Below, piece by piece: positions 16,718 through 33,476 of a DNA stretch of 64,000 nucleotides; the first letter of the stretch is position 1; the number at the start of each line of letters is the position of its first letter. Below the pieces are notes generated by a model, which ran no database searches, was not told the DNA's origin, and worked only from the letters and a program-made list of their open reading frames with translations. The translations under genes were made by a program, and so were the position numbers. This stretch comes from Candidatus Methanomethylophilaceae archaeon (GTDB lineage: Archaea > Thermoplasmatota > Thermoplasmata > Methanomassiliicoccales > Methanomethylophilaceae), in the NCBI GenBank assembly GCA_035271165.1, contig DATERX010000028.1:1-64000 (forward strand). Reading direction: 5' to 3'.

Positions 16718-18649
16718 TCACTCTTCGGTATCTTCCGGCCAGACCTTCTTTGTTATCTCTGAATCCCCGGGTGGCAAGATCCTTGATATCTCTTCCTCTG
16801 GAACGTCAAATGCTTTCGCAATCGTGTTCGGAGTGCCCTTATTCTTACCCCTACCGGGAATTATCAGGAAATATTTCTCCGAGGCCTTTTTTATAACACT
16901 GACCGGGGCGCACATTATCTTACGACTGCCGAGATACTCGATCTCACCGACCGCCATCTCCGCTTGGATATGGAATTCGTAATTCCTCTTGCCTCTGATT
17001 ATAAACGCACCGCGGGGAACGAATTCACCGGGGTTCGGGGTCTTGCTGACCTGGTCGGGATAAACCCAATACGCACTTCCCTCGGATAACGCGGATACCC
17101 ACGCCTTGGAATGACAATATGCGAAGGCGCAGACATCCGCTATCTCCGTCTTATCAGATCCTAGCCCTTCCTTGAATATTACCGATGGAGCGCCGTGTAT
17201 GTCGGCGTGGATGTACAGGTCGTTGTCCTTCATGTGTTTCTTGACGACCCTGTCGTTTGTATGGGCGTTCTTACCTGCTATAACGAGCTTACCAGAATCA
17301 GTTATGAACCATTTGTAGCGTTCGAACCAGAACTGCTTTGTAGGCTCTGCACGAGTAAGCGCCAGATGTCTCTCCTTCTGGAATCCCTTCTCCCTTTGCT
17401 GGAGTTCGGCAAGACTGGTCTTCAAGGCATCCTCGGCCCTCTTACCCTTGCTGCCTATATCCTTACCCTTTTGATATATTATCGAGGCGTTGGTATCAAG
17501 GCCCTTGGTGTAATCAAGGACGATCTTGCGCTCTCCGAGCACGATGGTGACATTGTTCTTCGCTGGGTCCATGGATGAGACGTAAGGGACCTTCATCGCA
17601 CCCTCCTTGAGTTTCTCCCATGTCAGTTTCCCCGACTGTTCCTTGAGGACCTTCAGAAGTGTTTCGACCTTTGGATATTCGGTATAAAGCGAGTCAGCCT
17701 GCAGACGGTATTCCTCTGCATCGGTCTCGTATTCGGATATGGTGTCCTGCTGCTTCTCAATCCTTCGTTTTAATTTGACGATTACGGGATCGACATATTC
17801 CTCTATCTCGGTCTTATCCTCCTGCTTGAGCAGGGCATCGATCGCCAGAGATATGGATTCGTACTGTTCGGATTCAGCATCGCCGTATGAAAATAACGGG
17901 ACGGGAGCGAGGTCTACGATCTTCCCATCCTCTAAGTATGCTGTAGGTTCCGATTTCGCCTCTGCGGCCAAAACGAGTTCTTCGACCTTCTCGAATATCT
18001 TCTTGAGATCATCCTCGGTAACGGCGACCGCAGGTGTCTCTTTGTCAATACCTGCACGGACGCAGACCTCCTCCGCGTATTGTCCGCCTAGGTTCACGGA
18101 TGTTGCTAACGTCCTGACGGTATCCGATTTGGATGAACGGAAAAGCGCGGTGAAATCCTCGTATGAGGATTCGCCCGGGTCGAACCTGGGCTGCGGCATG
18201 ATGTATTCCTCTCCCGGTCTTGTCGCCCTGTTCCTGTATGTTTTATGTATGAGGCAGTTGACGATCTTCCCTTCGGATATTAGGAGCACGTTGCCTCCGC
18301 CGAATATCTCGAATATCAATTGATATTCTATGTCGCCCTTCCTGAGCTCGGTGATGACGACACGGTCGAAACCCGCCTGTCTCGTCTTGCCTATCCTGGC
18401 ATTGTCTAAACGTTTGCGCATGAAAGAAGCAAACGACGTCGGCAACGCAGGCGTCTCTGGTTTAACGGGAGGTAAGAACAACCATCTCTTGTCCTTGAAG
18501 AACAGTTCCTTTTTACCGCCTGGGACTGTTACTCTAAAAAGTACGTTCCCTGCTCCCCATTGGAAGATCTTGTCCATGTGACCGTCCTCCAGGACAGCCA
18601 TCTCCGATACAATGGAACGGACGTCCAGGGAGCTCATTTCTTTCTTCAT
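16718..18649 (-). CDS. NFACT/FbpA-family protein (Rqc2/Tae2 homolog, ribosome quality control)
   Basis: ~640 aa with NFACT-N-like N-terminus, coiled-coil middle and C-terminal NFACT-R-like domain (GKNAHTNDRVVKKHMKDNDLYIHADIHGAPSVIFK). Start placed at MKKEM. Confidence 0.7.
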   Translation of the reverse strand: MKKEMSSLDVRSIVSEMAVLEDGHMDKIFQWGAGNVLFRVTVPGGKKELFFKDKRWLFLPPVKPETPALPTSFASFMRKRLDNARIGKTRQAGFDRVVITELRKGDIEYQLIFEIFGGGNVLLISEGKIVNCLIHKTYRNRATRPGEEYIMPQPRFDPGESSYEDFTALFRSSKSDTVRTLATSVNLGGQYAEEVCVRAGIDKETPAVAVTEDDLKKIFEKVEELVLAAEAKSEPTAYLEDGKIVDLAPVPLFSYGDAESEQYESISLAIDALLKQEDKTEIEEYVDPVIVKLKRRIEKQQDTISEYETDAEEYRLQADSLYTEYPKVETLLKVLKEQSGKLTWEKLKEGAMKVPYVSSMDPAKNNVTIVLGERKIVLDYTKGLDTNASIIYQKGKDIGSKGKRAEDALKTSLAELQQREKGFQKERHLALTRAEPTKQFWFERYKWFITDSGKLVIAGKNAHTNDRVVKKHMKDNDLYIHADIHGAPSVIFKEGLGSDKTEIADVCAFAYCHSKAWVSALSEGSAYWVYPDQVSKTPNPGEFVPRGAFIIRGKRNYEFHIQAEMAVGEIEYLGSRKIMCAPVSVIKKASEKYFLIIPGRGKNKGTPNTIAKAFDVPEEEISRILPPGDSEITKKVWPEDTEE

Positions 18650-18767
18650 ATGATTATGATAAACATACACGTATGATTTAGTTTAATCGCTTGCCCGATA
18701 ACGTGAGATGTAAAACATCAAAGCCAGAAACCTTTATCAATGACATGACGATTAGCCCACCCTACAG

Positions 18768-19258: not shown

Positions 19259-20473
19259 TCAGACCATTCTGTATATCACAAAACCGGACCAGATTTTCGG
19301 GAAGAAGAACGTAGACTTCTTGGGCATAAGCTTTCCATCCGCAGATAGACCCCACACATCGCGGAGCCTCGGATCGTTTAGCAGGATTGCAAGATCATAT
19401 TGCCCGTCGTCCATCTTGCTGATGGATGAGAGAATACTGGAATCGTAATCCACGACGGCCTTGTCCTCATCCCACTTGTACACACCCTTCAGGATTTTCT
19501 CCTGTACCACGTAGGTATCCAGCGCCATAAGTCCCTCTCCTCCCTCGTATTTTCCAAGGTAGGTCTTACCGGAGCGGAATCTGAGGCCCATCATCCAGTT
19601 GCCGAGACCGTTGAGCATCTCCTTCTCCGTACATTCCTGGACCTTAATGGCCTGGTAGATCTTACTGATCGCACTCTTCTCAGAGATGTTAGTGGTCTTG
19701 ACCAAACGATGTGTCGGTAGTATGACCAATCCCGGATCCTCCGTTGCAACGAGTGTGGCTAGCACGTAACCTTTCTTCTCGTCGTCCGGGTTCTCCTGAG
19801 AGTATGCCAACGCGGTCTCGTATCTGTGGTGACCGTCGGCGATCAGGACCCTCTGCTCCTCCATCGAGCTTGTGATCTCGTTACAGACCTTCTCATCGTC
19901 CAACACGGAGTATTTGTGTTCCACGCCTTCGTCGTCGATGTATTCGTAGACCAACTTCGAATGGTCGTTGATCTTGCGGTAAAGTTCATTATCGAAGGAA
20001 TCATGGATGCCCATTATGGATTCAAGATGTGCCTCCATATCCCTAAGGAGGTTGAGTCTGTCCGCCTTGACCTTCGAGAATGTCTCCTCATGAGGGATGA
20101 CCGTTCCATTCTCATAAGGTTCTGTCTTAAGCAGTCCGACGACACCGGTACGTGTCTTTTTCACACCGCCGTCATCGAATGTCTGTTGGTAGACGTAGAA
20201 TGATTTACTATCCTGCACCAAGGAACCATCCTTGATCCAGTTATCGAGTTCCCTCCTCGATCCACGATATCTCCTATCATCATCAGGTTTCAAAGTAAGC
20301 CTTGTGATGTTATGATAATTACTTTGAAGCTCCTCCAAGTACTCCGCGCCTATCACGTCGTAGGGGGGACTGATGCGATTTTCTACTGTTTCTCCAGCCT
20401 TTAGGGCTGGCCTGAATCCCGGAAAGGGTACGAAAGTAACCATAGCGCTCGTGGAGAAGACCGAATTACGCAT
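19259..20473 (-). CDS. DUF1015-family protein
   Basis: N-terminal VPFPGFRPALKAGE...ISPPYDVI matches the DUF1015 hallmark. Start may be the internal Met at 20443. Confidence 0.6.
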   Translation of the reverse strand: MRNSVFSTSAMVTFVPFPGFRPALKAGETVENRISPPYDVIGAEYLEELQSNYHNITRLTLKPDDDRRYRGSRRELDNWIKDGSLVQDSKSFYVYQQTFDDGGVKKTRTGVVGLLKTEPYENGTVIPHEETFSKVKADRLNLLRDMEAHLESIMGIHDSFDNELYRKINDHSKLVYEYIDDEGVEHKYSVLDDEKVCNEITSSMEEQRVLIADGHHRYETALAYSQENPDDEKKGYVLATLVATEDPGLVILPTHRLVKTTNISEKSAISKIYQAIKVQECTEKEMLNGLGNWMMGLRFRSGKTYLGKYEGGEGLMALDTYVVQEKILKGVYKWDEDKAVVDYDSSILSSISKMDDGQYDLAILLNDPRLRDVWGLSADGKLMPKKSTFFFPKIWSGFVIYRMV

Positions 20474-20493: not shown

Positions 20494-21540
20494 TCAGCAT
20501 ATCCTGGGTACAGGGTCTCCGATCGGCGGTTCCAATATCCTTTTTCCTCCGACCTCGGTCCTGAGGATAACTCTCTTTGGTCCATCGTTCGCATACCCTA
20601 TCAACGCGGCATCCTTTCCTTCCGGCGTCGATCTCAAAACCTTCAATATCTCGTCAGCCATCTCAGGGACGCATGCGATGACGCACTTACCCTCGTTACC
20701 TATACTCAAAGGATCGAGACCCAATAGATCGCAGGCGTTGACCACACCGTCCCTCAGAGGTATAGAAGCATACTCTATCTCCATGCCAACATGTGATTTC
20801 GAAGCAAGTTCGTTCAAGGTGTTGGCCAACCCTCCGCGGGTGGAGTCTTTCATCGAAGCGATACCGCCGACCTTCAATGCCTTCTCGATCATCATGTTCA
20901 GCGGAGCGACGTCACTCTGTATCTCGCTTTCAAATCCGTAACCTTCACGGAAGGACATCAGCGCTATGCCGTGATCTCCAAAGTATCCAGAGGCGATTAT
21001 CGCGTCACCAGGTGCTATGTTGGAATCCGTGCACCAGTTGTGTGTGACCTTCCTGTATTCCTTAGCCTTATCAAAATTTGAATCAAGGTATTTCGACCTG
21101 CGGCCGATGGCCGATGTAGACATGAACATCTTGTCCACCGCGCCCGCCTCGACAACTTTCGTATCGCCGGTCTCTATCGGCACACCGCATTCCTTGCTGG
21201 TCCTTCCGGCACTGGACATTATCAAGTCCACGATATCAGTATCGAGTCCCTCCTCGATTATCGCGGAACATCCCAATGCCAGGGGTTCAGCGCCCATGAC
21301 GGCGATATCGTTCACGGTACCTGCGACCGAGATCCTCCCAAGGTCTCCGCCTGGGAATATAATCGGCTTCACCGTATGTCCGTCTATAGTGAACACAATC
21401 CCGTCTACCACGGCGGAATCATCCATCGAATCCAGTGATACCTCGGATTTAGCCTTGGGGAAGTGGCACACGATGTGCTTCGACAGGAACTCCTGCATGG
21501 CCTCCCCGCCGGCCCCGTCACTCATTACGACCTTTGCCAT
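20494..21540 (-). CDS. hypE: Hydrogenase maturation protein HypE (PurM-like)
   Basis: N-terminal MSDGAGG and C-terminal PRIC motif, both HypE hallmarks. Confidence 0.85.
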   Translation of the reverse strand: MAKVVMSDGAGGEAMQEFLSKHIVCHFPKAKSEVSLDSMDDSAVVDGIVFTIDGHTVKPIIFPGGDLGRISVAGTVNDIAVMGAEPLALGCSAIIEEGLDTDIVDLIMSSAGRTSKECGVPIETGDTKVVEAGAVDKMFMSTSAIGRRSKYLDSNFDKAKEYRKVTHNWCTDSNIAPGDAIIASGYFGDHGIALMSFREGYGFESEIQSDVAPLNMMIEKALKVGGIASMKDSTRGGLANTLNELASKSHVGMEIEYASIPLRDGVVNACDLLGLDPLSIGNEGKCVIACVPEMADEILKVLRSTPEGKDAALIGYANDGPKRVILRTEVGGKRILEPPIGDPVPRIC

Positions 21541-21633
21541 TTTTGGTTGATGAGTGAACACGGATAAAGACTTGTCTTAATTTTCAAAGTCGGCAGATAT
21601 TTAAAATAAACCCTCGTGTGTAACAGCGACGTT

Positions 21634-22932: not shown

Positions 22933-23329
22933 TTATGTTAGAAGTTGCCCCCCTTGAAAAGGGGGTAAGGGGCTGGCAAACGCCAGTGTTATTGCGGTCA
23001 TCATTAGCGTCTTGCAGACCGTTCAGGTATGGTCAATCAGAGTAAAGCGCCATCAGGCCCGTCTTATGCTCTTTGTTACCGTAGTACCTTGTTGAACTTT
23101 CTTCGCCGCAGATCTTTGTGTATTTTCGTTTACCGATAGCCACTTACCTCCAGAATATACACGGAATTACTACTATTTATAGCAATCGTTCAACGAATTA
23201 CGTTGATTATCGAATATTACCTACGAATATCGTAATTAATTAGTTGAAAAGTATAGAAAACAGGGTTTTGAACAAAAACCCCTCGGTAGTGCATCATTGA
23301 TGATAGTATAAGGAAAAGAAAAAGAAAGA

Positions 23330-23345
23330 AGCCGGCCGTGGCCGG
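23330..23345 (-). terminator. Hairpin GCCGGCC-ACG-GCCGGC followed on the transcript by an oligo-U tract
   Basis: Lies 10 nt after the stop of 23356..24459; the minus-strand transcript then reads UUCUUUCUUUUUCUUUUCC. Confidence 0.6.
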
Positions 23346-23355
23346 CGTGATGGTT

Positions 23356-24459
23356 TCAGCCCAACTGTTCGGAGCAGTACGGACAGAACTTTGGCGTCTT
23401 CTTCAGACCCTTTAAGCTCTCCCCGCAGTAAGGGCACACGTTGAACACCTTGATGTCACCGGATCCCGAGGCCCCCTTCTGCATCGCAGGCGGCGGTAGC
23501 GGGTCTCTAAACTCCTCGAGCGCCTGTTGCTGAGGTGAGGGTTTTCCGCAGTCGTTGCAGTATTTGTACGGATAATCGTTAGGTGATCCGCAGTACGGAC
23601 ACAGGACCTTGGGAGCCTGCCCTTTATGACTCTGTTCCGTGGCCTGCTGCTGTTGCAGCTGTTGATACATCTGCGGGAAAAGCAACATACCGGTACCGAT
23701 CGCGGCACCTCCCTCGGAGTTACCTATCGCATCTGCCATGCGGTCCATGACTGAGTATCTCTTGAACGCCTCTCCCCTCTGGGAGCTGAACTGAAGATAT
23801 TCGAAGATCTTCTCCTGGTCCTCGTCGGTGGTCCTGAGCTCTGAAATCTTGAATGCCAATAGCTCGATACCCCTCTGGCGGAAGTACGGGTCGATCAACG
23901 CCCTCGTCGCGGACGATGCAAGCTCAAGACTCGAATAGACCTCCATGAAGTACTGTTTCGTGAGCTGCTGGGTGATCTGTTCGTTTATGAAGCTCTTCAT
24001 GAAGGCATTGACGTCACCGGTGCTGTAGGCGCTCATACCCCCAAGTATCTGAGTGTAGAATATCGCCACGTCGTTGATGCGGAACTGATAATCGCCGTTC
24101 GCCATCAAAGTGATCGGAACATCGTAATCGGGTGCGGCCTTGATCATACCCCTTATGCCCCACTTCCCGTTGAACATCTTAAGCGAGACGAATATGACCT
24201 GGACCTTGAACGGGGTCTCCTTATATCCCAGGGCAAGGTTGTAGAGTCTTGTCAGCCAGGGTATGTTGGACGTCGTCAACGTATGCCTTCCAGGCTCCAA
24301 AACACCGGTCAGCTGACCATCCCTCACGAACAACGCCACCGCATGTTCAGGTACTGTAACAGAGGTGACGGTCCTGAGGTCGTCCCTCTCGTACACATAA
24401 ACCATGTCGTCCTGGCCTTGGTTCTTCCATGATATGACATTGGTCTTTTCAACGACCAT
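23356..24459 (-). CDS. YdjI-type SPFH/Band-7-like protein with Q-rich linker and two C-terminal zinc ribbons
   Basis: N-terminal domain resembles B. subtilis YdjI (VISWKNQGQDDMVYVY...FVSLKMFNGKWGIRG). Q-rich linker QMYQQLQQQQ; Cx2C-x9-Cx2C and Cx2C-x12-Cx2C at the C-terminus. Confidence 0.6.
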   Translation of the reverse strand: MVVEKTNVISWKNQGQDDMVYVYERDDLRTVTSVTVPEHAVALFVRDGQLTGVLEPGRHTLTTSNIPWLTRLYNLALGYKETPFKVQVIFVSLKMFNGKWGIRGMIKAAPDYDVPITLMANGDYQFRINDVAIFYTQILGGMSAYSTGDVNAFMKSFINEQITQQLTKQYFMEVYSSLELASSATRALIDPYFRQRGIELLAFKISELRTTDEDQEKIFEYLQFSSQRGEAFKRYSVMDRMADAIGNSEGGAAIGTGMLLFPQMYQQLQQQQATEQSHKGQAPKVLCPYCGSPNDYPYKYCNDCGKPSPQQQALEEFRDPLPPPAMQKGASGSGDIKVFNVCPYCGESLKGLKKTPKFCPYCSEQLG

Positions 24460-24464
24460 TCAAA

Positions 24465-25007
24465 TCACTCCTTCGCCAGGAATCCCTTCATGACGGTTTC
24501 CCTTTCGTTATAGTCCTCGATCAATCTGTCGATGGTCCTCTCGACATCTCTGAGAGGAGTCTTGATGGCGTATTCACCCTGGTCAATCTTCTGTATCAGG
24601 TTGCCGATCTCCTTCCTCAGTAGGACGGTGCCGCCTATCAACTTGGCATCCCATGATATCAGGTCGTCCAGCTCCTCTTCCAGTATCTTGACCGAGGCAT
24701 GCCATCCGCTATAACCGTTCACGGCCTTCTTCACAGATATGTAATACTTGTCCACCTTCGAGGCTATCCTCTCGACATCCCTCATGAGGTCCAGGTTCTC
24801 TATGGCGACCCTGTGTACGGTTGCGAGATCGTTCTTTGCCCCCTCAAGGGTACGGGCGACCTCCTGTCTTATGGCACGGTCCTCGTCCCTACGGAGGTTT
24901 TTCTCTTTGTATCCCCTGTAGATGGGGATGTAAAGACCTACGCGTTCGATGAGTGACGTTGTGCCCTCCATCTTTTCGCTAACTGTCTCTTCCAACGGCA
25001 TTTTCAA
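24465..25007 (-). CDS. Soluble helical/coiled-coil protein of unknown family (operon member)
   Basis: 180 aa, no TM helix, charged heptad-like stretches; 4-nt overlap with the upstream 4-TM gene. Confidence 0.4.
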   Translation of the reverse strand: MKMPLEETVSEKMEGTTSLIERVGLYIPIYRGYKEKNLRRDEDRAIRQEVARTLEGAKNDLATVHRVAIENLDLMRDVERIASKVDKYYISVKKAVNGYSGWHASVKILEEELDDLISWDAKLIGGTVLLRKEIGNLIQKIDQGEYAIKTPLRDVERTIDRLIEDYNERETVMKGFLAKE

Positions 25008-25387
25008 TCACTCCTTATATCACGATTTTTAACAGCCAATACTATCACGAGTATGGCGATGATCAGGACTATCATTGCCACGGGGGCAATCCAGTCAAGG
25101 TCGGTGAACATGTACATGTAACCGGCCAGTCCGATAACCAGCATAAGCACGCCCATCACAAGGCTGTAGTCCGCCTCACTAGGTCCGAAGTTTGTACTCC
25201 GCCCCTTCTGCAACGGTGCCAACACTGCTACGGTCACCCCCATCATAATTAGTATCACCCAGAGGATGATGCTAGCTCCCATATCGGTTGCGTAGTATAA
25301 CACCAGGCCCACCACCAGCGATATAAGGAACATCGCCCCCGATATGGCTGAAAGGGTCCTGTTAGCCCTTCTGTCTCTGCTTTTCAT
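25004..25387 (-). CDS. Small integral membrane protein (4 TM)
   Basis: 127 aa, four hydrophobic helices, basic N-terminus MKSRDRRANR. Confidence 0.5.
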   Translation of the reverse strand: MKSRDRRANRTLSAISGAMFLISLVVGLVLYYATDMGASIILWVILIMMGVTVAVLAPLQKGRSTNFGPSEADYSLVMGVLMLVIGLAGYMYMFTDLDWIAPVAMIVLIIAILVIVLAVKNRDIRSD

Positions 25388-25406: not shown

Positions 25407-26945
25407 TCATATCATTATGAGTTGATCCGTGTTTACTCTTTTCATCCTCTCGGGCAAGAGCTTGCCGAAGCCGTCGATCACTACCATACCGTTCGAGATC
25501 CTGCAAGGAATATAGAGCAGGCCTTTGACATAAGGCTTGCTAAGTTTCAACTTGTTATCGTTCTTAGTGCTTTGCACGAGATAGTTATTGGTAAGGTGTT
25601 CGGCCTCCTTCTTTGTGCTCAGGGGAATCATTATCCTGCGTGCACCGGGACTGCCCGGTCTCGCCGCCTCTGAAATCATCCCTATACCCTCTCCGCCACT
25701 GATGCTCTTTTCCATTCCGCGCAGTCCTGCGAGGATGCTCTTCGGCGGTGAGAGGGAGAATATGTCTGTAAGTCCCGATGAAGGGTTGGTGAGACATCCA
25801 CGGTCTATGGTGAAGTCTGCAGGTATCAGCAGATCCTCAAGTACCTCAACGCTCTTCTTAGACCACAAGGCACCGGTGACGAAGCTGTATCTCAGATTCA
25901 CATACCAGAAGGGGAACAGATGGTCCCCACCTCCAGGTGCGATCATTATCGTATCGTTACCGCTCCTGGAGCTGAGCGCGGCGGAGAGATGGTCGAAGAG
26001 TTCCTTGTTACGGTCCTTGTTCCTTAGGATCCCCCAACCGCTCACGTTGGGATACTGTATCGAATATATTCTGGATAAAGTGGAAAGTGTCTTCACGGCA
26101 TCCCCGCCTGTGGATGCGGCGTTCTTCACAGTCTCGGTGAGCACGGTTATCTTAGAAAGCTCCCTACCCACTCCCTGATACATGACCGCTAGGGAGGGGA
26201 TCGCCAACAATTCGTTTCTAGCCTCCTCTAGCCCGGCAACGCTCTTCTCAAGATAGGATATGCTTCCCAAGGTGTCCCCGTTCAGCATCTTCTCGCATCC
26301 CTCGCACGCCTTTGCGAGGGAATCGAAGCGTTTTGCAACAGGGGCATAGTTAGCCGTACCCCTCAACAGCTCCGCGGCCTGGGAGAAGTTGTTTCCCATA
26401 AGGACGTACCTTCCAGGTTTGTCCTCCTGCAGGAGTTTAACATTGTTAAGCATAAGTGCGTAGGAGTTCACGATCCCCTCTGCATCGGAAAGCTCCTTTT
26501 TATCATCAATGTCCACCGCCAGGGACGATAGGCTTTTTATCTTGGCGTCGAACTCGAAAGCGGATGCCGGCGAATGTACAGGTCTCACGGTAACGTCGAA
26601 GGAGAAGGGCATTACGAAGAGCGAGTTGGTCATAAGGGTGTTCGCCGCGAACCTGTATTCCGTTATCTCGGCGTTCATCCTCGGTTTGACGTTGGTGACG
26701 TAGATGTTGTGCCTCGCCACCGAGTCTACATTCTCCGCCTGTGACATGGAGAACCCTCTGGGCATCGCGTTGCTGACCCATGATCGGACCTGACCCATCA
26801 ATTGGTCGAGGTATGCCTTGGCATCCATCCGCTGCTGTGTGGTACCGCAGCTCTTGCATGAGATGTACGGAGTATCCGCCTCCACGTCCTTCGCGTCGAA
26901 CGGCGCTCCGCAATATTTACATCGTAAAAGCACAAGGTCGTCCAT
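25407..26945 (-). CDS. 512-aa uncharacterised protein with N-terminal zinc ribbon
   Basis: LRCKYCGAPF-x17-CKSCGT at the N-terminus; the rest is soluble alpha/beta with no motif I recognise. Confidence 0.4.
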   Translation of the reverse strand: MDDLVLLRCKYCGAPFDAKDVEADTPYISCKSCGTTQQRMDAKAYLDQLMGQVRSWVSNAMPRGFSMSQAENVDSVARHNIYVTNVKPRMNAEITEYRFAANTLMTNSLFVMPFSFDVTVRPVHSPASAFEFDAKIKSLSSLAVDIDDKKELSDAEGIVNSYALMLNNVKLLQEDKPGRYVLMGNNFSQAAELLRGTANYAPVAKRFDSLAKACEGCEKMLNGDTLGSISYLEKSVAGLEEARNELLAIPSLAVMYQGVGRELSKITVLTETVKNAASTGGDAVKTLSTLSRIYSIQYPNVSGWGILRNKDRNKELFDHLSAALSSRSGNDTIMIAPGGGDHLFPFWYVNLRYSFVTGALWSKKSVEVLEDLLIPADFTIDRGCLTNPSSGLTDIFSLSPPKSILAGLRGMEKSISGGEGIGMISEAARPGSPGARRIMIPLSTKKEAEHLTNNYLVQSTKNDNKLKLSKPYVKGLLYIPCRISNGMVVIDGFGKLLPERMKRVNTDQLIMI

Positions 26946-26949
26946 GGGG

Positions 26950-27888
26950 TCACCTCCTGAGATAGCTCAGCTGTGAATGTATAGCATACAGTTCCGCCTG
27001 CATCCTGGCCTCGGTCGCCCTTATCTCAGACATGGCGTTCTCGTGATAGCGTTGTGCTATCTCGTCCGCCTTCTTGGTGATGCTGGAATGACACGCCCTG
27101 CAGGCATAGATTGCCTCGTGGTCCTCCGTCTCGGAGGTAAGGGGCTCCCTGCCCGGCGGCGTACGGAGCGCTGGCGATATGTCGCTGGGGAGTGCGAAGA
27201 AATGTATACCAAGGCCGGAGACGACCCTGCCGCAATACCAGCATTTGCATGTCTTCGCATAATCGTTGATCAACCGGAGGTTCTCCTCCCCGGTATCGCC
27301 CATCTGTTTCCGGTATCCGTAAGCTATCTGTTGGTACTCGGCGGCCTTTCGCGGATCTTCCCAGACGGTACCAGTGGCATAGGCCTCATATCCCATGGCC
27401 ATAAGCATGGCACCTTCCTTCATACCGGTCCTTGTCGTATCGTTGTTGTAAATCTCGCTTAATTTCAAAGTCTCTTCGCCGACCTCGGTCTGATACCTCT
27501 GCGCTAATTCGACGAGCTTCTGGCCCTTGTCGACGAGATCCCTTCCGGAGCCGCGCATATTGGTGATTCTTATCTCCTCGATGGCAAGCTCCGATTGTTT
27601 GATCATGGTCTCGGTATTCACCATCGTCAGGCCGAACTCGAACTCCTTGGCATCGGTATTCTTAAGCGATGTGATGAGATTCCTATATGCTCCGACGTCC
27701 CCCATGTTGCCACGTAGATCAATCATGCCGACCACGACGGCCGAAAGGTCGTCTGGACCGCCATCCTTCCTTATCGATAGGAGGAGCCTTTCCCGTGCCT
27801 TGGCGAATTCCCCCTGCCGTATCAGGTCCATTCCCTGAATGTGCAGGTCATCTGCTTTCTTGAATCTGGAGAAAACCATCTGCTTCAT
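26950..27888 (-). CDS. 312-aa helical (TPR-like N-terminus) protein with C-terminal Cys-rich zinc-ribbon-like region; first gene of operon
   Basis: DLIRQGEFAKARERLLLSI helical-repeat-like N-terminus; CKCWYCG...CRACH cysteine cluster; C-terminal coiled coil. Confidence 0.4.
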   Translation of the reverse strand: MKQMVFSRFKKADDLHIQGMDLIRQGEFAKARERLLLSIRKDGGPDDLSAVVVGMIDLRGNMGDVGAYRNLITSLKNTDAKEFEFGLTMVNTETMIKQSELAIEEIRITNMRGSGRDLVDKGQKLVELAQRYQTEVGEETLKLSEIYNNDTTRTGMKEGAMLMAMGYEAYATGTVWEDPRKAAEYQQIAYGYRKQMGDTGEENLRLINDYAKTCKCWYCGRVVSGLGIHFFALPSDISPALRTPPGREPLTSETEDHEAIYACRACHSSITKKADEIAQRYHENAMSEIRATEARMQAELYAIHSQLSYLRR

Positions 27889-28131: not shown

Positions 28132-28193
28132 AAGAACAAACTTTAACCACTATAATCCACAGAAATGGAATATTGTATTGGAGGATAAAAAAC

Positions 28194-29816
28194 ATGGGTA
28201 TGGGTAACGCACCTATTTTGATTCTTAGAGAAGGAACCAAGAGGAATAAAGGAAAGGACGCTCAATACAACAACATCTCGGCGGCAAGGGCCATCGCAGA
28301 TTCAGTAAAGAGCAGCCTAGGACCCAGGGGTATGGACAAGATGCTTGTCGACTCACTGGGAGACGTCGTCATTACGAATGACGGAGTTACAATTTTGAAA
28401 GAGATGGATGTGCAACATCCCGCGGCAAAGATGCTCGTAGAGGTTGCAAAGGCACAAGATGCAGAGGTAGGGGACGGAACAACATCCTCCGTCATAATAA
28501 CAGGCGAACTCCTGAAGAAGGCGGTCGACCTGATCGAATCCAACGTTCACCCCACCATCATCACAGCAGGATACAAGCTTGCCAACGATGAGGCACAGAA
28601 GGTATTGTTGGACATCGCGAAAAAGGTCACCATCGATGATGAGGAGATCCTAAGGAAGGTCGCCGAGATCGCTATGATAAGCAAACAGGCGAGCGGTGCG
28701 AAGGAATACTTTGCCAAACTGACCGTTGATGCCGTCAGGACCGTCGCGGAGAAGGGCGAGGACGGAAAATACACCGTTGACCTTAGCAACATCCAGACAG
28801 TCAAGAAGGCTGGTGCAAGGATGGAGGAGACCAAGCTCTACAAGGGATTGGTCATCGACAAGGAACCCGTACAGCCCAGCATGCCTAAGGTCGTAAAGGA
28901 CGCGAAGATCGCTCTCATCGATGCTGCTTTCGAGGTCAAGAAGACCGAGATGGAGGCAAAGATCCAGATCACAGACCCCTCCCAGATGGCAGGTTTCATC
29001 GCAGAGGAAGAGAACATGCTCAGAAGGATGGTCGACTCAGTCAAGGCATCCGGAGCCAACGTGGTGTTCTGCCAGAAAGGTATCGACGACGTAGCACAGC
29101 ACATGTTCGCCAGCGCGGGGATATTCGCATGCAGGCGTGTCAAGAAGAGTGATATGGACAGGCTAGCTAAGTCCACCGGTGCATCCGTCATCAACAAGGT
29201 GAGGGACATAAGCGCCGAGGACCTCGGATTTGCGGGCAAGGTCGAAGTGAAGAAGGTCGAGAACGAAGAGATGACCTTCATCACAGAGGTCAAAGACCCC
29301 AAGACTGTCTCCGTGCTCGTAAGGGGCGGAACCCAACATGTCGCAGACGAGATCGAGAGATCCCTTGTGGACGCATGGTCCGCAGTAAAGGCCACAGTAG
29401 AGGACGGCCTTATCGAGACCGGCGGTGGATCCAAGGAGATGGAGATCGCAATGCGCCTCAGGGACCACGCATCATCCATCGGTGGAAGGACACAGATCGC
29501 TCTCGAAGCGTTTGCATCCGCCATGGAGGTAATCCCGGCGACACTCGCCGAGAACGCAGGTCTAGACCCCATCGACATGCTCATCGAGATGAGGAAACAG
29601 CACAAGGAGGGCAAGATAACGGCTGGAATCAACCCCTTCACCGGAAAGGTGGAGGACATGATGAAATCCAATGTCATCGAACCCTATAGAGTCGGTAAAC
29701 AGGCCATCAACGCCGCTACCGACACCGCTGTGATGATCCTCAGGATCGACGATGTCATAGCATCCTCCAGTAGCGGAGAGATGGACATGGGCGATCTCGA
29801 CGACTACGACGAGTGA
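28194..29816 (+). CDS. ths: Thermosome subunit (group II chaperonin)
   Basis: N-terminal [14 protein letters not shown] motif GDGTTS, acidic MGDLDDYDE tail. Start at ATG 28194 after the RBS, not the ORF-track 28173. Confidence 0.9.
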
Positions 29817-29834
29817 AACGGTAAATCAAACACA

Positions 29835-29853
29835 GGGGGGGGTTTTACCCCCT
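29835..29853 (+). terminator. Hairpin GGGGGGGG-TTTTA-CCCCCC after thermosome stop
   Basis: Strong G/C stem 19 nt after the stop codon. Confidence 0.45.
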
Positions 29854-29885
29854 CCCGACCTTACAAAAACCTGAGATGATCGCAG

Positions 29886-30455
29886 ATGACTGATAAGTCC
29901 AGAAAGGGAAAAGAGCTGAAAAAAAAAGGTCTGGAAGAGGAGGTTGTGTACCACACAGAATCCGTGAAGGACGAGCTCACAGAAGCGATGGCACTGGCCG
30001 ATCAATATCTCGATGCGGCCAAACGAATACAGGCGGACTTCGACAATTATAGAAAAAGGTCCGTCAAAGAGATGAATGATTTCAAGAGAAAGGCCACGGA
30101 TGACCTGATCACCGAACTACTGAGCACTGTCGACGACCTAGACAGAGCGCTCGAGAACACGGATGAGGACACAGAGTTCATTCGCGGAATAAAGGGCGTA
30201 CGGCAAAACCTGATGAAGGCGCTGGCGTCCTACGGGCTCGAAGAGATCCCGACCAATTGCAAATTCAATCCCGAATACCATGAGGCACTGAGTGTCGCGG
30301 AAGGGAAAGAGGACGGGGAGATAGCTGAGGTGTACCAGAAAGGGTACGTCTGCGGCGACCGCGTCCTTAGATATTCAAAGGTCAAAGTGAATAAGGCTCT
30401 CGAGAAAGAGGGTCAGACAGCCGGAGAGACGGCAGAACAAAACAGAGAGGAATGA
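29886..30455 (+). CDS. grpE: Nucleotide exchange factor GrpE
   Basis: Coiled-coil N-terminus, DFDNYRKR motif, ~190 aa. Confidence 0.85.
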
Positions 30456-30463
30456 GAGATATG

Positions 30464-32323
30464 TCAAGAATAATAGGAATCGATCTGGGGACCAGCAACT
30501 CAGCTGCGGCGGCGATGGAGGGCGGCAGGCCGACCATCATCCCCAGCGCCGAAGGAACAAGCGTGGGCGGAAAATCATTCCCGTCCTACGTGGCATTCAC
30601 AAAAGAAGGCGAACTGCTGGTTGGAGAACCGGCAAGGAGACAGGCGGTAACAAACCCTGAGGGTACCATAAAGAACGTAAAGAGGAAGATGGGGTCCAAT
30701 GAGAAGATCACCATATTCGGTAAGGATTACACACCCCAGCAGATTTCCGCATTCATACTTCAGAAGATTAAGAGGGATTCAGAGTCCTTCCTAGGAGAGA
30801 CGATAAACAAGGCGGTCATCACGGTGCCCGCATACTTCGACGATAACCAGAGGCAGGCCACCAAGGATGCCGGGGCGATTGCCGGACTTGAAGTCGTACG
30901 TATGATCAACGAGCCCACATCCGCCGCTTTGGCGTTCGGTCTCGACAAGAGTGACACAGAACAGAAGATAATGGTCTTCGACTTCGGAGGAGGAACCCTC
31001 GATGTCACGATCATGGACCTTAGCGACGGGGTCTTTGAGGTCCTTTCGACGAAAGGGGACACCAAGCTCGGCGGATCGGACATGGATGAGAACATCACCA
31101 AGTACGTCACCGACGAGTTCAAGAAACAGACCGGTGTCGACCTAACCACGGACAAGATGGCGTTCTGGAGAGTGAGGGAAGCATGTGAGAAGGCGAAGAT
31201 CGAACTCTCGACAACCATGCAGACCGAGATAAACCTCCCCTTCATATCATCCGACGCCTCGGGACCCAAGCACCTTGTGCAGACGCTAACTCGCTCCAAG
31301 CTCGAGGAACTTGTGGAACCCATCATCGTAAGATGCAAGGAAAGCATAACCGGAGCCGTCAAGGATGCTAAGATCAAGATGGACGACATCGACAAGATCA
31401 TAATGGTGGGAGGTCCGACAAGGATGCCCTCCGTCCAGAACTACGTCGAGAGCGTCGTAGGACCCAAGATTCAGCGCGGAATAGACCCGATGGAATGTGT
31501 TTCCATGGGAGCCGCGGTCCAGGGAGCCGTACTTTCAGGGGACGTCAAGGACGTCCTCCTGCTGGACGTAACGCCCCTGACCCTCGGTATCGAGACCCTC
31601 GGCGGTGTGGCGACCCCGCTCATCGAGAGGAACACCACCATACCCACCAAGAAATCACAGATATTCTCCACCGCGGCCGATAACCAGCCCTCGGTCGAGA
31701 TCAACGTGGTTCAGGGTGAGAGAAAGATGGCCGCGGACAACACGTCGCTCGGTCGCTTCATACTAGACGGTATACCTCCAGCACCCCGCGGGATACCTCA
31801 GATAGAGGTCACATTTGACATCGATGCCAACGGTATCGTGACGGTGACTGCTAAGGACACGGGAACCGGCAAGGTACAGAAGATAACAATCGCATCATCA
31901 AGCAAGCTCAATGACGACGAGATTGAACAGATGATCAAGGACGCGGAGAAGTTCGCGGACGCAGACAAGAAGAAGGTCGAGGTTATCGAAGTCCACAACC
32001 AGGCGGAATCCAACATTCATATGGTCCGTAAGTCACTGGACGAGCTCGGGGACAAGGTCTCACAGGAAGAGAGGTCATCCGTGGAAGCGGCGATCACCGA
32101 CCTTGAGACCGCGAACAAGACCGAGGACATCGACCAGATCAAGGGCAAGATAGATGCACTGATGAAGGCCTTCGAACCCATATCCACAAGGATATACCAG
32201 GAGGCCTCACAGGCACAGGCCGAAACCGGAGGACCCAAAGGACAGAAGTCCCACGAGAACCCCGAGGACGACGTCGTCGATGCGGACTTCAAGATAGTCG
32301 ATGACGACGAAGAAAAGAACTGA
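30464..32323 (+). CDS. dnaK: Chaperone DnaK (Hsp70)
   Basis: [18 protein letters not shown] and other Hsp70 signatures; acidic C-terminus. Confidence 0.95.
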
Positions 32324-32336
32324 GGCGTGACTGTAG

Positions 32337-33476
32337 ATGGGTAAAGACTACTATGAGACGCTCGGAGTCACTAAAGATTCCACACCCGACGAGGTAAAGA
32401 AGGCATACCGTAAGCTCGCCAAGAAATATCATCCGGACGTGACCTCGGAGCCCAAAGATGTGGCCGAGGCCAAGTTCAAGGATATATCCGAGGCTTACGA
32501 GGTGCTCTCAGACCCCGAGAAGAAGGAGACATACGACAGGTTCGGTAGCGATGCCGTCAACAGTCATTTCTCCGGAGGCGGGTTCTCATGGGAAGATTTC
32601 ACCCACGCAGACGACATCAACGACATCTTCGGAGACATCTTCGGAGACATCTTCGGAGGTTTCGGAAGAGGCTCCGGGTCCAGGAACAGGGGTCCCCACC
32701 AGGGGAGCTCCCTGCGCATGGACGTGGAGATCACCCTCAACGATGTCCTCAAGGGCGTCAAAAAGAACCTTGAGGTCCCCCACACCGCAAAGTGCGGGGA
32801 CTGTGAGGGTACCGGCGCCAAGGACGGGAAGACCGAGACATGCACACAGTGTAAGGGTAGCGGTCAGACCCGTACCGTACGTCAGACCATGTTCGGCAAC
32901 ATGGTCTCCGTATCCGATTGTCCCAAATGCCGCGGTAAAGGACAGTCCTTCGAGGACAAATGTCCCAAATGCCGCGGTTCGGGATACATTCAGAAGACCA
33001 CAAAGGTCGAGGTGAACATCCCCAAGGGAGTTCATGACGGCTCCACCGTCAGCCTCAGGGGGATGGGGGACGCCAGTCCCGACGGTGGTCCGTCCGGCGA
33101 CCTGTTCGTGTTCGTACACGTGAAGAAGCACGACTCCTTCGAACGCGACGGTGCGAACCTATGGACAGGTATAACGACGACATATCCGAGACTGGTTCTC
33201 GGAGGGGAAGAGGAGGTCCGTACACTGGAAGGTGAAAGGGTCATGCTCAAGATACCCAAGGGGACACAGGTGGGCTCCGTGCTCAGGATAAACGGAAAGG
33301 GTCTGCCCCGTTCGACGAATTCACCCTCGCGTGGCGATATGCTCGTCCGTGTGAAAATCGAAGTCCCGAAGAAGGTGTCCAAGGAGGATACCGAGCTGCT
33401 TAAGAAGCTGGACGAAGGGTCCGGCAGGAAGAAGCCTAAGCAGACACTCCGGGACAAGATCGAGGATATTTTTTAA
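32337..33476 (+). CDS. dnaJ: Chaperone DnaJ (Hsp40), type I
   Basis: J-domain with HPD; G/F region including a 3x DIFG repeat; four CxxCxGxG zinc-finger repeats. Confidence 0.9.
   Translation: MGKDYYETLGVTKDSTPDEVKKAYRKLAKKYHPDVTSEPKDVAEAKFKDISEAYEVLSDPEKKETYDRFGSDAVNSHFSGGGFSWEDFTHADDINDIFGDIFGDIFGGFGRGSGSRNRGPHQGSSLRMDVEITLNDVLKGVKKNLEVPHTAKCGDCEGTGAKDGKTETCTQCKGSGQTRTVRQTMFGNMVSVSDCPKCRGKGQSFEDKCPKCRGSGYIQKTTKVEVNIPKGVHDGSTVSLRGMGDASPDGGPSGDLFVFVHVKKHDSFERDGANLWTGITTTYPRLVLGGEEEVRTLEGERVMLKIPKGTQVGSVLRINGKGLPRSTNSPSRGDMLVRVKIEVPKKVSKEDTELLKKLDEGSGRKKPKQTLRDKIEDIF

Follow-up and report, generated by a model that had tools for sequence, protein, structure and literature searches.

What does a large archaeal protein do that begins with a zinc ribbon, carries no familiar catalytic motif and is encoded close to an SPFH protein? 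The question is posed by a run of five minus-strand genes, here called A to E, in a 64,000-nucleotide stretch of the genome of Candidatus Methanomethylophilaceae archaeon (GenBank assembly GCA_035271165.1, contig DATERX010000028.1, positions 1 to 64,000), to which we refer as the window. SPFH proteins, among them stomatin, prohibitin, flotillin, HflK/C and YdjI, are membrane organisers found in all domains of life, and the order to which this organism belongs, the Methanomassiliicoccales, consists of methyl-reducing methanogens of human and animal guts. To our knowledge, the recruitment of soluble YdjI-type SPFH proteins to the membrane and what it is that they scaffold are only beginning to be understood, and only in Bacillus. 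An earlier reading of the window from its letters alone (the original prediction) singled out gene B, described its product as an orphan that might be either a distant counterpart of YdjG or a new family, and proposed that it was the effector or scaffold of a module with an SPFH partner. We find that B belongs to an archaeal family with a conserved set of gene partners, and propose that it may be a soluble, non-enzymatic adaptor or scaffold of a membrane module.

Sequence and predicted fold of the gene B product

Gene B is an intact open reading frame of 512 amino acids, as first described. Its strand, left unstated at the time, is the minus strand; translation of 25407-26945 on the plus strand is riddled with stops. 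The product begins with MDDLVLLRCKYCGAPFDAKDVEADTPYISCKSCGTTQQ, in which CKYCG occupies residues 9-13 and CKSCG residues 30-34. The spacer between the two motifs measures 16 residues and not the 17 originally counted.

All four cysteines of these motifs are invariant in an alignment of 45 homologues. Among 59 homologues, with identities down to 20%, C30 and C33 remain invariant and C9 and C12 are present in at least 90%. Matches to zinc-ribbon models of Pfam (Zn_ribbon_3, DZR, Zn_Ribbon_TF and others) are weak and sub-threshold, and recur in up to 24 of the 59 members; the AlphaFold model places short strands at residues 27-29 and 36-38, which would fit the hairpin of a CxxC-knuckle ribbon. 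Because the cysteines are conserved across such diverse homologues, the N-terminal zinc ribbon of the original prediction is, on the evidence of the alignments, a genuine and selected feature and no chance pattern, with metal binding predicted. The protein has eight cysteines in total, and the four outside the ribbon are not among the invariant columns.

The remainder of the sequence was said to be soluble and devoid of nucleotide-binding, protease or nuclease motifs, and both statements hold. The highest 19-residue Kyte-Doolittle mean is 1.07, and no segment resembles a transmembrane (TM) helix. Besides the sub-threshold zinc-ribbon models, no domain was recognised in B by Pfam, NCBIfam, PADLOC or PHROGs, nor did B match any PDB sequence, whether searched as a single sequence or as a narrow or wide profile; profile matches at noise level comprised a segment of the U1A RRM (E 0.027) and TPR proteins. 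A confident match to a characterised enzyme family, named in advance as grounds for abandoning the prediction, was thus found neither in these four hidden Markov model (HMM) libraries nor in the PDB. No nucleotide-binding, protease or nuclease signature appears across the alignment of 59 sequences. In the wide alignment, which spans all clades, only D74, R78, R206 and Y455 are invariant besides the zinc ligands, with D394 nearly so, and no P-loop, catalytic triad, HxH or DxD-type signature is kept.

AlphaFold2, run with the 45-sequence alignment, produced a confident model (mean predicted local distance difference test score, pLDDT, 86.1; predicted template modelling score, pTM, 0.83) in three parts: the zinc ribbon (residues 1-38), some ten long helices (39-327) and an alpha/beta domain (333-512). 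The helices stack as antiparallel pairs into a solenoid, the feature by which the TPR-like superfamily is recognised. The most conserved stretch of the solenoid is AYALLINN..KLL.EDKPGRY.LM.NNF (residues 160-187). The grooves with which TPR and ARM proteins bind peptides typically show asparagines paired on consecutive helices, and by analogy the AYALLINN/GRY/NNF stretch may resemble such a groove. The core of the alpha/beta domain is formed by a long beta-hairpin (342-357 and 364-375), one helix (445-459) and, as third long strand, residues 472-484; the conserved motifs of the domain are PFW.V.L.YSF.TG....KK..V.E in the hairpin, an SISGG loop, PLST..EA in the helix and KLKLS.P in the strand. 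No fold match to this domain was found in the PDB.

Family size and phyletic range

The label of orphan could not be upheld. Among 5.8 billion cluster representatives at 90% identity, a word-indexed search found 220 matches to B, essentially all of them full length, about 510 amino acids long and 45-100% identical. When 1.84 billion representatives at 50% identity were searched exhaustively with an HMMER profile, 130 proteins were found at E <= 0.001; these were proteins of roughly 470-600 amino acids with the architecture of B, together with fragments thereof, and nothing else.

Named members of the 90% clusters come from Methanomethylophilaceae, Methanomassiliicoccaceae, Methanoplasma and metagenome-assembled genomes (MAGs) labelled 'Thermoplasmata', the nearest named relatives of gene B (72-74% identity) being from MAGs of Methanomethylophilaceae. 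Cluster look-ups placed two members outside the order, one of 469 amino acids in Thermogladius (Thermoproteota) and one of 521 in a MAG labelled 'Thaumarchaeota/Nitrososphaerota archaeon'; further members are metagenomic proteins without a named source. Judged by its named members, the family is archaea-only, narrow but reaching beyond the Methanomassiliicoccales, and no credible bacterial organism is found among its members. Archaeal operon contigs do occur in 'cleanbin' MAGs with bacterial labels (L038, L042, L043, L053, L060, L062, L067, L079 and L082, labelled as Lachnospiraceae, Firmicutes CAG:194, Bacteroides ovatus, Bifidobacteriaceae, Ruminococcus, Bacteroidaceae, Faecalibacterium and Dialister). 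We attribute these to archaeal contamination, since the gene content of the short contigs matches that of Methanomassiliicoccales.

The suggestion of a new family has fared well: B shows no recognisable catalytic motif and, like A and D, is by the library searches an uncharacterised family without a Pfam or NCBIfam model of its own. Relatives of about 590 amino acids (P0238, P0240 and P0243, L088:4069-5799) carry an N-terminal extension of some 55 residues, for example EIQQILNGLDKRLALGEIDMATYRELKKKY. To the eye the extension resembles a SHOCT domain, but Pfam gives no such match at E <= 0.1 and we make no claim to one.

A gene set conserved across two archaeal phyla

B is the second gene of five, separated from one another by gaps of 4, 19 and 5 nucleotides and by one overlap of 4 nucleotides. 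Four of the five products are soluble, three have zinc ribbons, two have TPR-like solenoids and one is an SPFH protein; C is the only membrane protein by hydropathy. None of the five contains a recognisable enzymatic domain, and Pfam and NCBIfam detect no nuclease, ATPase or helix-turn-helix (HTH) domain in them. The profile of A matches consensus TPR proteins. As A and B both join TPR to a ribbon, paralogy between them was considered, and was discarded at an hhalign probability of 0.9%. E matches Band_7_1 (E 3.5e-26) and Band_7 (E 4e-9), with DZR and DUF7577 near threshold and no TM segment by hydropathy; B. subtilis YdjI is described as having this architecture (PMC11237479). D is a soluble helical protein whose alignments show the invariant motifs P.Y.GY....RR..D...R, GYS and L..L..WDA.

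In the Methanomassiliicoccales, where one genome per GTDB species was scanned and 80 loci were kept of 117 relatives, neighbouring genes in 82 loci were detected by tblastn with the proteins of the window. A lies directly upstream of B in every one of the 82, and D, E and C accompany them in 76, 73 and 68, respectively, and the order is A-B-C-D-E without exception. The absences are put down to contig ends or, in the case of C, to divergence. The flanks vary: thermosome, grpE and dnaK genes stand on one side in only 20-26 of the 82 loci and GS/GOGAT genes in others. Adjacency to the chaperone genes (thermosome, grpE, dnaK and dnaJ) was entertained as a functional link and set aside as local synteny, because it occurs in only that fraction of loci.

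The same genes recur in a different order in a Thermoproteota-like clade. On a contig of the Thermogladius type (L083), a 170-amino-acid protein is followed by a Band_7_1 protein with a SHOCT domain, a 336-amino-acid protein and the B homologue. The first is a homologue of D (hhalign probability 97.6%, E 4.7e-12) and the third of A (BLASTP 1e-16, the match covering the ribbon and the C-terminal helix). A second contig (L087) reads D-E-A-B, followed by a 125-amino-acid membrane protein; the D homologues of the two lie at L083:5473-5982 and L087:4438-4953. A metagenome scan seeded with three members of the clade added 14 loci, and B identity to the Thermogladius protein falls as low as 28% within the clade. 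The order D-E-A-B is found in all 12 loci of the clade with enough upstream DNA (L083, L087 and ten from the scan), and a small C-like TM gene follows B in some. The SPFH partner here ends in a SHOCT domain instead of zinc ribbons. The central position originally claimed for B consequently describes the Methanomassiliicoccales and not this clade, where B is the last gene or the second to last.

A adjoins B in all 22 loci from other clades (L083-L104), often with overlapping stop and start codons. In three clades the pair occurs without SPFH or D nearby: the Nitrososphaerota MAG, where the A homologue is recognised by BLASTP at 1e-15, and the loci L088 (with a B of about 590 amino acids) and L089 (538 amino acids). 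A 160-amino-acid protein upstream of A in the Nitrososphaerota MAG was examined as a candidate D and is not D-like. The setting of L088 (7645-8297, 8626-9954) and L089 (1-220, 5048-5779), with PIN/MazE, ATPase_2/DUF234, AAA_14/DUF4143, DpnI and weak DUF3800 matches nearby, looks variable or defence-island-like, unlike the stable context in the Methanomassiliicoccales.

Two dyads emerge from these comparisons, A-B in every locus examined and D-E joined in two phyla and two arrangements. Because membership is kept despite rearrangement of gene order, a functional module is strongly supported, and with it the earlier proposal of a module that includes the SPFH protein, given that the operon persists in all 82 loci and its gene set recurs reordered in a second clade.

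Some further observations concern D. It forms an uncharacterised family. In two archaeal phyla its gene is always the immediate upstream neighbour of the Band_7_1 SPFH gene. A cross-phylum profile search with D found, among the matches listed, only close members from the Methanomassiliicoccales. D also has a weak, full-length match to the NCBIfam model LIMLP_15305 (a Leptospira family) at E 1e-7, which hints at possible bacterial relatives.

A proposed role as adaptor or scaffold

How might such a set of proteins work together? We favour the reading that B is soluble and non-enzymatic, and serves as adaptor or scaffold in a membrane module associated with SPFH. The analysis shows its domain anatomy, the lack of known catalytic folds, the phyletic range and the conservation of the gene set; the function that these suggest may equally well prove right or wrong. 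B would pair obligately with A, a protein of TPR, zinc ribbon and C-terminal helix, in a physical complex that we infer together with the binding roles of the domains, recruitment to the membrane via C and the physiological role. The A-B pair would work with the SPFH protein E, its helical dyad partner D and the polytopic membrane protein C in the Methanomassiliicoccales and the Thermoproteota-like clade. C would anchor the complex in the membrane and E would oligomerise into an SPFH assembly, while the zinc ribbons and TPR-like grooves of A and B would dock helical or peptide segments of their partners; the C-terminal alpha/beta domain of B may offer a further surface for partner binding or oligomerisation. 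The output would be membrane-proximal scaffolding, serving membrane surveillance, repair or microdomain control, in a role analogous to, and not homologous with, that of B. subtilis YdjGHI (SamGHI). Of the two roles first offered, effector or scaffold, the second is the better one, since B is made up of a ribbon, a solenoid of TPR type and a small alpha/beta domain.

Several considerations weigh against this proposal. Firstly, the core function of A-B is independent of SPFH, because three clades carry the pair alone. Secondly, the co-variation of B with its SPFH partner, suggested at the outset as a check, is hard to separate from common descent. Across 39 loci, the distance matrices of A, D and E correlate with that of B at r 0.91, 0.87 and 0.68 (0.79, 0.76 and 0.50 after regressing out APRT), values which are confounded by common phylogeny, lend soft support only and are lowest for the SPFH protein. 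Thirdly, the invariant residues D74, R78, R206 and Y455, in a protein with a domain that has no PDB neighbour, could form a site of unfamiliar chemistry, and B could then be catalytic.

Alternative interpretations

Every one of the top structural matches of the B solenoid is an ESCRT-III-binding module, a Bro1 or an MIT domain, and the Z scores of generic TPR proteins, at comparable aligned length, are 2-3 units lower. B might then be a Bro1/MIT-like adaptor whose solenoid binds a helix of D, a diverged analogue of ESCRT-III or PspA, and couples it to the SPFH protein; we consider this unlikely. The parallel would lie with ALIX-CHMP4 in eukaryotes and YdjI-PspA in Bacillus. The part envisaged for D suits a protein that is small and helical and whose gene always stands ahead of that for SPFH, and in the Methanomassiliicoccales D has an invariant L-D-x-L-x-x-W-D-A, which fits [MLI]xxLxxW, the form of the Bro1-binding helix of CHMP4. 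The Thermogladius homologue of B (P0207) has BRO1 as its top Pfam match, albeit sub-threshold (E 0.025, 13.9 bits against a cut-off of 35.1). In addition, links between SPFH proteins and ESCRT-III or PspA are documented in bacteria and archaea (PMC8581546, PMC11188069).

However, the resemblance weakens on closer comparison. Foldseek found nothing below E 0.8 when the full model was compared with the PDB, the Bro1 domain of HD-PTP appearing at rank 47 with E 3.3, and designed three-helix bundles score like MIT domains. The gene B protein itself has no match to Pfam BRO1 (PF03097), nor is BRO1 recurrent among the 59 members, being matched in at most one or two of them and far under the gathering score; we take the signal in P0207 as no more than a lead. 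Identity to the Bro1 domains of ALIX, BROX, HD-PTP and yeast Bro1 and to the MIT domains of Vps4/CdvC is 8-11%, and B covers only about 55% of the Bro1 domain. For D, no match to PspA_IM30 or Snf7 was found in 43 members, and comparison with PDB sequences returned coiled-coil noise only, with no PspA, Vipp1 or ESCRT-III among the matches. We have downgraded the [MLI]xxLxxW motif because its tryptophan is not kept in the Thermoproteota-like clade, where it is phenylalanine or histidine, and because a motif so short would turn up by chance in a few percent of proteins as large as D. No recognisable ESCRT-III or Vps4 is encoded near B, and according to Makarova et al. orthologues of Bro1/ALIX are not identifiable in archaea, even in Asgard (PMC11188069). 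Since Foldseek lends no support, the BRO1 signal in Pfam is isolated and designed bundles match as MIT domains do, we do not call the helical domain of B a Bro1 domain; on the model, it would be a TPR-like solenoid with a Bro1-like arrangement.

A more far-reaching form of this idea, which we hold to be rather improbable, would make A-E an undescribed archaeal machine for membrane remodelling or repair, in which B and A bridge a C-anchored SPFH cage to an ESCRT-III/PspA-like filament of D. Were it true, B would be the first prokaryotic Bro1-like ESCRT-III adaptor, and the SPFH-ESCRT and ALIX-CHMP4 links of eukaryotes would trace to archaea outside Asgard. Should the resemblance to Bro1 and MIT domains be functional, there would be implications for how ESCRT accessory factors arose.

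That B is an archaeal counterpart of B. subtilis YdjG (SamG), the zinc-ribbon-led partner which helps to recruit a YdjI-type SPFH protein, was one of the original suggestions, and we now regard it as quite unlikely. YdjG and B each have at the N-terminus a zinc ribbon with weak matches of TFIIB type (for YdjG, PMC9239133). In either case the operon centres on a soluble SPFH protein, of Band_7_1 type and with C-terminal zinc ribbons (PMC11237479), and both have a membrane protein among the partners and a small helical protein alongside. In B. subtilis, YdjI is soluble and needs its membrane partners YdjG and YdjH to reach the membrane (PMC8581546, PMC11237479, bioRxiv 10.64898/2026.02.06.704340), where it stabilises PspA foci (PMC8581546; bioRxiv 10.64898/2026.02.06.704340).

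The architectures nevertheless differ throughout. YdjG is membrane-integral (PMC8581546), with an NTF2-like domain related to YpeB and a TM segment in addition to its two zinc ribbons (PMC11237479). A single ribbon, a solenoid of 290 amino acids and a domain without a PDB match make up B; a second ribbon, an NTF2-like domain and a TM segment, each a mark of YdjG, are all absent from it. The exhaustive profile search described above, moreover, found only proteins of B architecture. Among the operon proteins Band_7_1 is present, but neither PspA_IM30 nor TPM, the domain of YdjH, is matched. Unlike YdjH, the archaeal C is a small protein with four TM segments; unlike the PspA module, the archaeal operon has in D a protein without PspA signal and in A an extra subunit of TPR and zinc ribbon. 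On these comparisons, no archaeal partner (A-D) belongs to the corresponding Firmicute family, and the named members of the B family are all archaeal. B may thus be at most a positional or functional analogue of YdjG, homology being unsupported by the sequence comparisons.

We strongly doubt that B is an enzyme or effector whose catalytic part is the novel alpha/beta domain, with ribbon and solenoid for targeting. This domain is the most conserved part of B, with PFW...Y.F.TG, TD.F, SISGG and PLST..EA invariant within the Methanomassiliicoccales; no structural neighbour points to a role for it in binding, and Y455 is invariant, and D394 nearly so, in all clades. On the other hand, SISGG and most of the other motifs are not kept outside the Methanomassiliicoccales, the wide alignment contains no conserved catalytic constellation of the His, Ser, Cys or Lys type, and neither a nucleotide-binding motif nor a match to an enzyme family was found in the searches above. 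Highly improbable, finally, is a reading of A-B as a mobile stress or defence module or nucleic-acid-binding regulator with a secondary SPFH link, to which a weak PADLOC match (PDC-M14A, E 0.0033, ribbon region only), the PIN/MazE, DpnI, DUF3800 and AAA_14/DUF4143 genes around the pair in L088 and L089 and source annotations of some members as RNA-polymerase or RNA-binding zinc-ribbon proteins might point, for those names rest on the zinc ribbon alone, A-E are free of recognised nuclease, ATPase and HTH domains, and the Methanomassiliicoccales operon occupies a syntenic, housekeeping-like site near APRT, AIR-synthase-like, chaperone or GS/GOGAT genes.

Relation to other systems and significance

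In the archaeal 'Meth_adaptin' ESCRT-associated loci (PMC11188069), too, a zinc-ribbon SPFH protein, there with a coiled coil, stands with other ribbon proteins in a multi-gene, membrane-associated locus. Those loci, however, have Vps4, ESCRT-III and adaptin-appendage proteins, none of which is detectable by Pfam or NCBIfam in the A-E locus, and they belong to the Methanobacteriales, whereas the A-E set belongs to the Methanomassiliicoccales and the Thermoproteota-like clade. Like generic scaffolds of TPR and zinc ribbon, A and B combine a C4 ribbon with TPR-like repeats; unlike them, B has an additional alpha/beta domain without known relatives. No description of the gene set came up in a full-text literature search on the SPFH Pfam family and on SPFH in combination with archaea, zinc ribbons and SHOCT. 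By analogy, A-E may be viewed as an SPFH-associated membrane module built from new families, in which the surroundings of a YdjI-type SPFH protein would be the known kind.

Archaea, then, pair a YdjI-type SPFH protein with wholly different partners, and keep the set across two phyla despite reshuffling. The analysis gives context to a 'hypothetical protein' found across the Methanomassiliicoccales, and A-E make up a small, defined set of mostly soluble proteins amenable to biochemical reconstitution.

Features and neighbourhood of the locus

Table 1. Features of the A-E operon, domains of the gene B product and downstream genes, in window coordinates.
Feature	Coordinates	Strand	Basis or description
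Gene A, 312 amino acids	26950..27888	-	N-terminal TPR, invariant CWxCGR...CxxC zinc ribbon, C-terminal helix
Gene B	25407..26945	-	512-amino-acid uninterrupted open reading frame, stop codon at 25407-25409
B residues 9-34, C4 zinc ribbon (CKYCG...CKSCG), predicted	26844..26921	-	Conservation, sub-threshold Pfam matches, model strands
B residues 39-327, all-helical TPR-like solenoid of about ten helices, predicted	25965..26831	-	Model
B residues 333-512, conserved alpha/beta domain, predicted	25410..25949	-	Model
Gene C, 127-amino-acid membrane protein	25004..25387	-	About four hydrophobic segments (hydropathy)
Gene D, soluble helical protein of about 178-180 amino acids	24465..25007	-	Alignments, invariant motifs
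Gene E, 367-amino-acid soluble SPFH protein of YdjI type with two C-terminal zinc ribbons	23356..24459	-	Pfam
A/T-rich TATA-like box AGTTTTTAACTTAATAA	27901..27917	-	Upstream of A, read from sequence
Terminator-like GC hairpin and T-rich run	23321..23346	-	Pattern scan, consensus match only
AIR-synthase-related gene (HypE/SelD/ThiL-like)	20494-21561	-	Downstream of operon
DUF1015 gene	19259-20473	-	Downstream of operon
NFACT protein, 650 amino acids (NFACT_N and NFACT-R_1, Rqc2/FbpA-type ribosome quality control)	16718-18670	-	Downstream of operon

The coordinates in Table 1 call for some comments. Homologues of A begin at a residue aligned with M4, and its true start is probably the ATG at 27879; for D, the true start is probably the ATG at 25001, two codons past the listed TTG, where the majority of homologues begin. 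The hairpin, 10 nucleotides past the stop of gene E, is the probable end of the operon, and the TATA-like box is a putative promoter. The box sits in the divergent intergenic region common to gene A and the thermosome gene, which is 284 nucleotides long. On its other side, a thermosome gene (Cpn60_TCP1, E 4e-177) is followed by grpE-dnaK-dnaJ at 28173-33476 on the plus strand, divergent from the operon. Downstream, the genes for the NFACT protein, the DUF1015 protein and the AIR-synthase-related protein are syntenic in a subset of relatives.

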